The position numbers were made by a program, and so were the translations under genes. A stretch of 64,000 bases of DNA from Gammaproteobacteria bacterium (GTDB lineage: Bacteria > Pseudomonadota > Gammaproteobacteria > Steroidobacterales > Woeseiaceae), in the NCBI GenBank assembly GCA_009937605.1, contig JAACFG010000001.1:9527-73526 (forward strand). Reading direction: 5' to 3'. Each line of letters starts with the position of its first letter. Position 1 is the first letter of the stretch. The notes beneath the pieces were generated by a model. It saw nothing but the letters and a program-made list of their open reading frames with translations, was not told the DNA's origin and made no database searches. This document shows, piece by piece, positions 54,306 through 54,899 of this stretch.

Positions 54306-54899
54306 ATGAAACAGCTGAATATATTTATCGCCACCCTGGCGCTGACGGTACTGGCGTTCGCGCCGGCGGTCGTGCGCGCCGACGAGGACATGGACGACCT
54401 CGAAGTCACGATGATGGTTCTCGATGACGTGAGCGATTTCGATGAGAGTTTCGCCGAAATGGACGGTCCTGATGACGACGACGTCCGCGATGAGGACTGG
54501 GAAGACGAGGAAGACCACGACGAGTCGGACGAAGAACGTGAAGACGAGTCTGACGAGGAGCGTGACGAAGAGTCCGATGAGGAGCGTGAGGACGAGCGCG
54601 AAGACGAGCGTGACGAAGAGTCCGATGAGGAGCGTGAGGACGAGCGCGAAGAAGAACGTGAGCTTGAGGACGAGCACGAAGAAGAGTTCGAAGACGAGTT
54701 CGAGAATGACGAGCTCGACGAAGAAGAGGAAATGGAACACGAAGATGACTTCGAAGACGGTGAAGACATCGACGAGGACGAGTTCGACGAGGATGACGAA
54801 GAGGAAGACGACGAATTCGACGAGGATGACGAGGATGACGAAGAAGACGAAATGGACGACGACGATTCCGAGGAAGAAGAAGAGGACGACGTCGAATAA
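54306..54899 (+). CDS. Secreted or periplasmic hyper-acidic (poly-Asp/Glu) repeat protein
   Basis: GGAG RBS and a Sec signal peptide MKQLNIFIATLALTVLAFAPAVVRA|DED. The mature part is about 172 aa, and by my hand count about 120 of those are D or E. There is no K, C, Y or Q. A terminator follows the gene. Confidence 0.75.
   Translation: MKQLNIFIATLALTVLAFAPAVVRADEDMDDLEVTMMVLDDVSDFDESFAEMDGPDDDDVRDEDWEDEEDHDESDEEREDESDEERDEESDEEREDEREDERDEESDEEREDEREEERELEDEHEEEFEDEFENDELDEEEEMEHEDDFEDGEDIDEDEFDEDDEEEDDEFDEDDEDDEEDEMDDDDSEEEEEDDVE
54564..54659 (+). repeat. 48-bp tandem duplication inside the acidic protein gene
   Basis: gacgaagagtccgatgaggagcgtgaggacgagcgcgaa occurs at 54564-54602 and again at 54612-54650. 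This encodes DEESDEEREDERE twice. More degenerate (D/E)nR periodicity flanks the repeat. Confidence 0.85.

Follow-up and report, generated by a model that had tools for sequence, protein, structure and literature searches.

We analyzed a stretch of 64,000 nucleotides (nt) of contig JAACFG010000001.1 (GCA_009937605.1; positions 9,527 to 73,526, forward strand), hereafter the window, in which an open reading frame (ORF) of 197 amino acids (aa) at 54306-54899 (+) encodes an extremely acidic protein that carries an export signal and whose gene lies directly behind those for a sigma factor and a putative anti-sigma factor. The first 25 residues of this protein (54306..54380, +) read as a signal peptide for the Sec pathway and signal peptidase I: they consist of MKQ, then LNIFIATLALTVLAFAPAVV, then VRA|D (predicted cleavage: AVVRA|DED), with a hydrophobic core of 20 residues, and on inspection they display a charged n-region, an h-region within the usual 10-20 residues, and small residues at positions -3 and -1. 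The mature chain that would remain (54381..54899, +, stop codon included) has 172 residues and a net charge of about -114; a composition count gave 68 E and 55 D (123 residues; 71.5%), 9 R, and 3 H, with zero K, C, Y, and Q. An earlier reading of this DNA made without database searches (the sequence-only reading) had proposed a hyper-acidic protein bearing a signal peptide, with about 120 D/E in about 172 residues and with no Lys, Cys, Tyr, or Gln in the mature part. The export signal, the chain length, and the missing residues all agree with our analysis, and the acidic count was set slightly too low.

Because the GAN-rich DNA at this ORF is open in five of the six frames, an open frame by itself proves nothing here. 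Within 54290-54990, four other frames on the two strands carry ORFs of 145-225 aa (poly-Ser, poly-Arg/Pro-Leu, or Lys/Thr-rich). To sample related loci, we used the upstream anti-sigma protein as a search handle, together with a full profile scan; the comparison set comprised 31 genomic loci, whose genomes carry the label Woeseiaceae or uncultured Gammaproteobacteria, and 80 loci from metagenomes. The metagenome scan, for which a divergent anti-sigma alignment was used, retained close relatives only (70-94% identity) and left the taxonomic range of the set as it was. A homologous acidic ORF with an intact frame was present in every locus with sufficient downstream DNA except two, namely L027, a contig of a metagenome-assembled genome on which the match to the sigma gene is also partial and weak, and L056, a short metagenome contig of 1.5 kb. 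Among the closest relatives, the N-terminal block had 24/12/81 substitutions at first, second, and third codon positions and the C-terminal block 7/5/37, and the length differences among more than 90 related loci were all in frame. The three opposite-strand frames were open in 29, 52, and 10 of 91 loci, i.e., broken in 39-81 of them. The third-position substitutions, the in-frame length changes, and the broken opposite-strand frames together indicate, on comparative grounds, that the + frame is a protein-coding gene under purifying selection; the overlapping ORFs, which are often interrupted in relatives, are artefacts of the GAN-rich DNA. One could still argue from the five open frames, and from the fraction of relatives in which opposite-strand frames stay open, that the ORF is no functional protein gene at all and is instead a by-product of purine-rich repeats or the shadow of a conserved feature on the other strand. 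Set against the concentration of changes at third codon positions, the interruption of the opposite-strand frames, the preservation of the signal peptide and of two motifs (see below) while lengths changed in frame, and the conserved Shine-Dalgarno sequence and terminator, we consider this explanation extremely improbable. The sequence-only reading had likewise named conservation of the opposite strand or of another frame, and disruption of the frame in relatives, as outcomes that would speak against the gene; it is the + frame that is conserved, with the opposite strands open in only 10-52 of 91 loci, and disruption is confined to L027 and L056.

The physical character of the mature chain is that of a strong polyelectrolyte. 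Its net charge per residue is -0.66, its charged-residue fraction 0.77, and its normalised hydropathy 0.23, values that mark it as a strong polyelectrolyte and place the chain far within the disordered region of the charge-hydropathy plot. Since so high a net charge per residue is combined with very low hydropathy, the protein is almost certainly an intrinsically disordered, unfolded chain, as judged from composition. All members of the family that we assembled from the related loci share this character: they are strong polyanions with 48-75% D+E and a net charge of -60 to -113, with almost no Lys and no Cys of note, the Cys found in some members being neither conserved nor located within a lipobox. 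The signal pattern MK..N.FIA.L.LT..AF.PA..RA|D is common to all of them, so that the export signal is kept across the family together with the acidity.

Part of the chain is built of tandem repeats. Tandem Repeats Finder reported an array of 3.0 copies with a period of 48 nt and 86% matches at 54517-54661 (54517..54661, +), corresponding to a 16-aa unit of the EDE[RS]DEERDEESDEER type. The longest perfect duplicate is 47 nt (54558-54604 is identical to 54606-54652, at an offset of 48); the sequence-only reading had the period of 48 right and gave the perfect segment as 39 nt, which is too short. Its description of regularly spaced Arg holds as well, the array being one of (D/E)nR units with periods of 4, 8, and 16. 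When repeats were compared among strains, the arrays differed in length and sequence, in keeping with the fast repeat evolution that had been proposed: the close strain L040 has a protein of 192 aa, compared with 197 in the window, and a different array, and the arrays of L044 and L045 are much shorter. More generally, even close strains differ in the acidic filler between and after the conserved motifs, namely in its length, its repeat structure, and the residue that serves as filler (Arg, Ser, His, or Gly).

Within this variable chain we identified two conserved motifs in an alignment of 80 family members (mean column identity 21%). The N-motif (residues 30-56; 54393..54473, +) runs from DDLEVTMMVLDD to DFDESFAEMDGP in the window protein, starts with alternating hydrophobic and acidic residues, and ends in GP; its consensus is DDLDVTMEV.DD...EM.GP, with at least 90% conservation of L32, V34, T35, M36, V38, and P55. 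The hydrophobic residue at every second position at its start would fit an amphipathic beta-strand. The C-motif (residues 130-161; 54693..54788, +) reads DEFE(H/N)D...EDDFEDGED(V/I)DEDEFD and has the consensus D.FE.D...EDDFEEGEDVD.DE.D, with F132 and D158 at least 90% conserved. Both motifs persist in members that are much less acidic, and the C-motif is present even in the least acidic and most divergent ones. We infer specific folded partners from these data because short hydrophobic-bearing motifs are conserved inside a disordered, fast-changing chain; as sequence features, the two motifs argue for particular protein partners over a purely non-specific polyanion.

Searches with the window protein or with the 80-member alignment gave no meaningful match in Pfam (E <= 0.1), in NCBIfam (E <= 0.01), or in a sequence search of the PDB. 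The window protein lacks the PROSITE pattern PS00018, which describes the 12-residue Ca-binding loop of EF-hands and which we found in only 3 of 109 members, there at non-homologous positions; none of the 80 members has a Pfam EF-hand match, and we saw no conserved DxDxDG pattern. With PS00018 not conserved and no Pfam EF-hand present, we rejected an identity as an EF-hand calcium-binding protein. Scanning 1.84 billion representative proteins in full with the family profile gave only 209 clusters, all short and all aligned from residue 1, and an indexed search with the full protein gave only 6 matches, overwhelmed by low-complexity candidates. Low-complexity masking and word-based searches thus largely miss this family. 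Wherever a source names its members they are called 'hypothetical protein', and our literature searches found no description of the family. The acidic protein thus belongs to an unannotated family of marine-sediment Woeseiaceae bacteria, and this family appears to be confined to one lineage.

The acidic gene is the last of three genes. The first (53183..53722, +) encodes a sigma-70 family factor of the extracytoplasmic function (ECF) type, for which the Pfam matches Sigma70_r2, Sigma70_r4_2, and Sigma70_ECF were all above their cut-offs and the NCBIfam model TIGR02937 (sigma70-ECF) scored 87.6 bits (cut-off 42.9). The second (53757..54293, +) encodes a putative anti-sigma factor, a single-pass membrane protein of 178 aa, with a GTG at 53706 as an alternative start. 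The anti-sigma start lies 34 nt 3' of the sigma stop, and the acidic gene starts 12 nt 3' of the anti-sigma stop. Its Shine-Dalgarno sequence GGAG (54295..54298, +) stands 7 nt 5' of the ATG and 1 nt 3' of the anti-sigma stop, which agrees with the ribosome-binding site of its own that had been assigned to the gene. The operon is closed by an intrinsic terminator (54945..54986, +) with an 11-bp G+C-rich stem, formed by a hairpin at 54945-54979 and the U-run behind it; the 106-nt stretch around it has a minimum free energy of -42.7 kcal/mol (z = -3.6). This confirms the strong terminator of the sequence-only reading, and the structure is kept in nearly all related loci, being absent in L003. 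By this layout, the three genes are predicted to form one operon in the order sigma, anti-sigma, acidic protein. The sigma gene was found upstream of the acidic gene in all related loci, and the order of the three is invariant down to 46% anti-sigma identity, a pelagic TARA contig included; it also occurs in lineages whose anti-sigma protein bears a zf-HC2 domain.

This last group supplies the evidence for the second gene. The window copy has no Pfam match (zf-HC2, PF13490, included), and a profile search of the PDB gave no match for it. The orthologues in L038 and L033 match zf-HC2 with 34 and 33 bits (cut-off 22.2) and align to the window protein from the region before the transmembrane segment to the C-terminus. 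Because divergent orthologues carry zf-HC2 and align over the transmembrane and periplasmic parts, we regard the membrane protein as a putative anti-sigma factor whose N-terminus was shortened by about 38 residues in the window lineage. When the window lineage (53757-53900) was compared with L038:2577-3224 and L033:165-818, the first ~38 residues, including HxxxCxxC, were missing, and the shortened protein has a cytoplasmic segment of only about 50 residues. Among the anti-sigma matches listed, nearly all have 178 aa and the same ATG start, and this short form is conserved in hundreds of sequences. The periplasmic domain is conserved and about 95 aa long, with 8 strands in residues 86-177 of an AlphaFold2 (AF2) model of poor quality (pLDDT 45.6).

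Upstream of the sigma gene (53108-53185; compared across L001-L031), most lineages share TCCTTGCC, a spacing of ~17 nt, and TA(T/C)ACACTC. The shared element ends only 9-12 nt before the start codon, so that the sigma mRNA would be almost leaderless; the sub-clade to which the window belongs has another sequence in place of the -35-like part.

As a tentative interpretation, which we favor, the exported disordered polyanion may serve in the periplasm as an accessory subunit of the ECF sigma factor and anti-sigma factor with which it is co-transcribed. Signal peptidase I would cleave after Ala25, and the 172-residue chain would remain unfolded in the periplasm, where its two amphipathic motifs would dock on folded partners. 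The likeliest partner would be the beta-rich periplasmic domain of the anti-sigma factor, since this is encoded on the same mRNA. The fast-evolving acidic arms would be non-specific binders of Mg2+, Ca2+, and other metal cations or of polycations. The cation load would alter the size or binding of the chain, and through these the stability of the anti-sigma protein and, with it, sigma activity. The docking, the responsiveness to cations, and the effect on sigma activity are steps that we infer. We favor a specific partner because a non-specific ion sink would not need hydrophobic motifs. Several points weigh against such an accessory role. The AF2 model of the anti-sigma protein was too poor for a fold search, and a gene that shares a transcript with an ECF sigma gene often encodes an effector and not a regulator. 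With a net charge of -9, the anti-sigma periplasmic domain is acidic as well, so that simple charge attraction is unavailable. Finally, the conserved gene order is weaker evidence than it looks, because it comes from one lineage with wide synteny in which uvrD and trkAH are also kept.

As the main alternative, we consider it possible, if doubtful, that the protein is an effector, a sigma-induced bulk polyanion of the periplasm that buffers or sequesters cations or supplies fixed negative charge, the motifs merely anchoring it to a component of the envelope. Its targets would include Ca2+, Mg2+, Mn2+, Fe, toxic metals, cationic peptides, and polyamines. The extreme charge is universal across the family, and the repeats expand and contract quickly in such a way that charge is kept and sequence is not, as if bulk charge were selected. 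The acidic gene also has a good Shine-Dalgarno sequence of its own, and membership in a sigma operon would give stress-induced expression, ECF operons being commonly autoregulated. On the other side, the motifs with their invariant hydrophobic residues are better conserved than the acidity, and metal-selective ligands are limited to a few His, with no conserved EF-hand or DxDxDG. One small gene would presumably also offer only limited buffering compared with seawater-level Mg2+ and Ca2+.

The gene that follows the terminator (55058..56662, +) encodes an outer-membrane protein of 534 aa with a signal peptide, three tetratricopeptide repeats (TPR; residues ~31-150), and a 16-strand beta-barrel (residues 169-533). 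The sequence-only reading had mentioned neither this neighbor nor the operon with the sigma and anti-sigma genes nor the two motifs. The window copy matches Pfam TPR_2, and its AF2 model (pLDDT 80.9) has TPR helices in residues 31-150 and 16 long strands in residues 169-533. Half of its homologues (17 of 34) match BBP2_2, and neither the window protein nor any of the 34 homologues matches DUF560 (PF04575); with a TPR domain present and PF04575 absent, an identity as a Slam / type XI secretion protein was rejected. In a fold search, the best PDB match was BcsC (E = 8e-10; TM-score 0.42), and PgaA and AlgE were matched as well.

Across lineages at 49-53% overall identity, no part of the outer-membrane protein is better conserved than the TPR domain (55145-55450; residues 30-130), in which N39, R40, R53, N70, R83, R85, N104, R120, R123, and R126 are invariant, and this conservation pattern suggests a conserved ligand. 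The TPR profile scored weakly against CHIP, PP5, and SGT (E = 0.004-0.09), which ranked below designed consensus TPR proteins. The EEVD-binding carboxylate clamp of Hop, CHIP, PP5, and SGT consists of five residues: K and N in the first repeat, N in the second, and K and R in the third. When we mapped the register by hand onto what we take to be the clamp positions of Hop and CHIP, N39 and N70 fitted, and F35, A100, and N104 stood at the positions of K, K, and R. Binding of the conserved EDVD of the acidic protein by an EEVD-type TPR clamp is thus unsupported by this hand mapping. In the barrel, a crude assignment of lumen-facing strand residues by alternation counted 25 R/K and 15 D/E (net +10), a weak hint that the lumen may be electropositive; in our reading of the list of invariant columns, invariant Arg and invariant Asp/Glu of the barrel were about equal in number.

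This neighbor raises a further explanation, namely that the acidic protein is a partner of the TPR and barrel protein, either as an unfolded polyanionic cargo that passes through the barrel to the surface of the cell or to its matrix, much as polysaccharide porins export charged polymers, or as a tether that spans the periplasm between the outer-membrane protein and the anti-sigma factor, which would resemble a Dma anti-sigma factor, a protein that crosses both membranes, split into separate parts. The outer-membrane gene is downstream of the triad in all loci with enough DNA, divergent ones included. The combination of TPR with a 16-strand barrel and with matches to BcsC, PgaA, and AlgE, the strong conservation of the TPR domain, and the excess of R/K in the crude lumen-facing count would all suit a polyanionic partner, and Dma offers a precedent for a disordered segment that couples a barrel to an anti-sigma domain (PMC10927553). 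Nevertheless, a strong terminator stands between the two genes, and a conserved element of its own lies upstream of the outer-membrane gene. A position weight matrix of this 20-nt element did not find it upstream of the sigma gene, so that no shared regulation is visible. In addition, uvrD and trkAH are equally syntenic, and the adjacency may be lineage synteny only; the TM-score of 0.42 is low and marks a generic barrel match; there is no DUF560/Slam signature; and the K/R residues of an EEVD-type clamp appear to be absent by the hand mapping. We consider a partnership of this kind unlikely.

Less probable still, and in our view a long shot, is that the four adjacent genes form a split trans-envelope sensor in which the chain links the TPR domain, through the C-motif, to the anti-sigma factor, through the N-motif. 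The chain would then act as a polyelectrolyte spring whose length is set by the ionic or cationic state of the periplasm and tunes sigma activity. If true, bacterial envelopes would use a signalling principle that has not been described for them.

The spacer between the terminator and the outer-membrane gene holds two elements. The first, of 20 nt (TTGCGCCACGTCATAGTTTC), lies at 54982-55001, directly 3' of the terminator, and the second (TCTGACATAAC), at 55029-55039, follows ~27 nt on. In nearly all related loci, pelagic L034 included, the nucleotide sequence of both is conserved, and far better so than the flanking coding sequence. We found no Rfam family, no conserved structure with RNAalifold, and no other full match within the window for these elements, and upstream of the sigma gene the matrix of the 20-nt element scored no better than shuffles. 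By eye, we recognised no sigma-70 or ECF consensus in the conserved elements upstream of the sigma and outer-membrane genes. The spacer elements are probably the promoter/operator of the outer-membrane gene, used by some sigma factor or regulator. In one related genome, L009 (7189-7555), the spacer behind the acidic gene differs in that three tandem copies of a unit of ~55 nt (GAAATCCCCCC...GGGAGATTTGGAA) precede the normal terminator, which looks like a local duplication of a hairpin-like element.

In the wider neighborhood, the downstream genes uvrD and trkAH are as syntenic as the outer-membrane gene, and the region upstream of the sigma gene is variable. Just upstream of the sigma gene, 50136-52870 (-) holds two genes, one for a protein of 746 aa whose N-terminus is twin-arginine-like and one for a small Cys-rich protein; by eye they look like a candidate molybdopterin oxidoreductase pair. 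We found this minus-strand pair at that position in only some relatives (L001, L006, and L008), and the left border of the sigma block is therefore variable. The sigma gene is overlapped by a listed ORF of 398 aa at 52373-53569 (-), whose 5' end has probably been extended too far.

In marine sediments, Woeseiaceae rank among the most abundant bacteria. The module of sigma factor, anti-sigma factor, and acidic protein is highly represented in sediment metagenomes, the search with the anti-sigma protein alone having returned 1717 homologues (clusters at 90% identity). If the acidic protein is a regulatory partner, the module would be the first case of ECF signalling under the control of a disordered polyanion and would offer a simple physical model for the sensing of cations or polycations in the periplasm. 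Should it be an effector, it would be a protein counterpart of the anionic periplasmic glucans or a high-capacity cation sink, with relevance to metal and carbonate chemistry at the cell surface. Under either reading, an unannotated protein family has been defined.

We compared the locus with known systems that resemble it in composition, in architecture, or in regulatory layout. In composition, the acidic protein is like calsequestrin and the acidic biomineralisation proteins, which are Asp/Glu-rich, carry a large negative charge, and bind many cations non-specifically; calsequestrin, however, is a folded, thioredoxin-like, eukaryotic protein, and the acidic family has no Pfam or PDB similarity. 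Treponema pallidum Arp is likewise exported and has Glu-rich tandem repeats whose copy number varies among strains, but it is far less acidic, has a folded C-terminal domain, is encoded outside any sigma / anti-sigma operon, and has no sequence relation to the acidic family. As for architecture, the likeness to BcsC, PgaA, and AlgE concerns only the outer-membrane neighbor, which shares with them a periplasmic TPR domain and a 16-strand barrel, and it is one of architecture and not of sequence membership: the TM-score to BcsC is 0.42, there is no BcsC-type Pfam match, and half of the homologues are BBP2_2. No polymer synthase gene is found among the immediate neighbors (sigma, anti-sigma, and acidic genes upstream; uvrD, trkA, and trkH downstream).

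In regulatory layout, the closest counterparts are RseB (rpoE-rseA-rseB) and CnrX (cnrYXH), which are periplasmic third components that control anti-sigma factors, CnrX in response to metal cations; both bind the periplasmic part of the anti-sigma factor and gate its inactivation. Like them, the acidic protein is secreted, and its gene shares an operon with those of an ECF sigma factor and a putative single-pass anti-sigma factor. Both counterparts are folded and have defined ligand sites, whereas the acidic protein is a disordered polyanion and has no Pfam or NCBIfam match to either. A precedent in principle for the coupling of a cation-binding periplasmic protein to an ECF sigma factor is the CaBP of Caulobacter vibrioides, a periplasmic protein with three EF-hands that is coupled to SigV (PMC13171946); it differs from the acidic protein in its EF-hands and gene arrangement and has no homology to the acidic family. 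Dma combines, in a single polypeptide, an inner-membrane anti-sigma domain, a disordered periplasmic segment, and an 8-strand outer-membrane barrel (PMC10927553), and the same three elements are encoded side by side in the window. There they are spread over three separate ORFs, divided by stop codons and a terminator, and the barrel has 16 strands and is preceded by TPR. At the sequence level, the locus shows none of the features that define the EF-hand, RseB/CnrX, Dma, Slam, or calsequestrin families; what it has in common with RseB/CnrX and with Dma is position and logic only. What would be new, if our tentative analogy with these systems is right, is that the periplasmic third component of an ECF module may be a disordered hyper-acidic chain instead of a folded protein.

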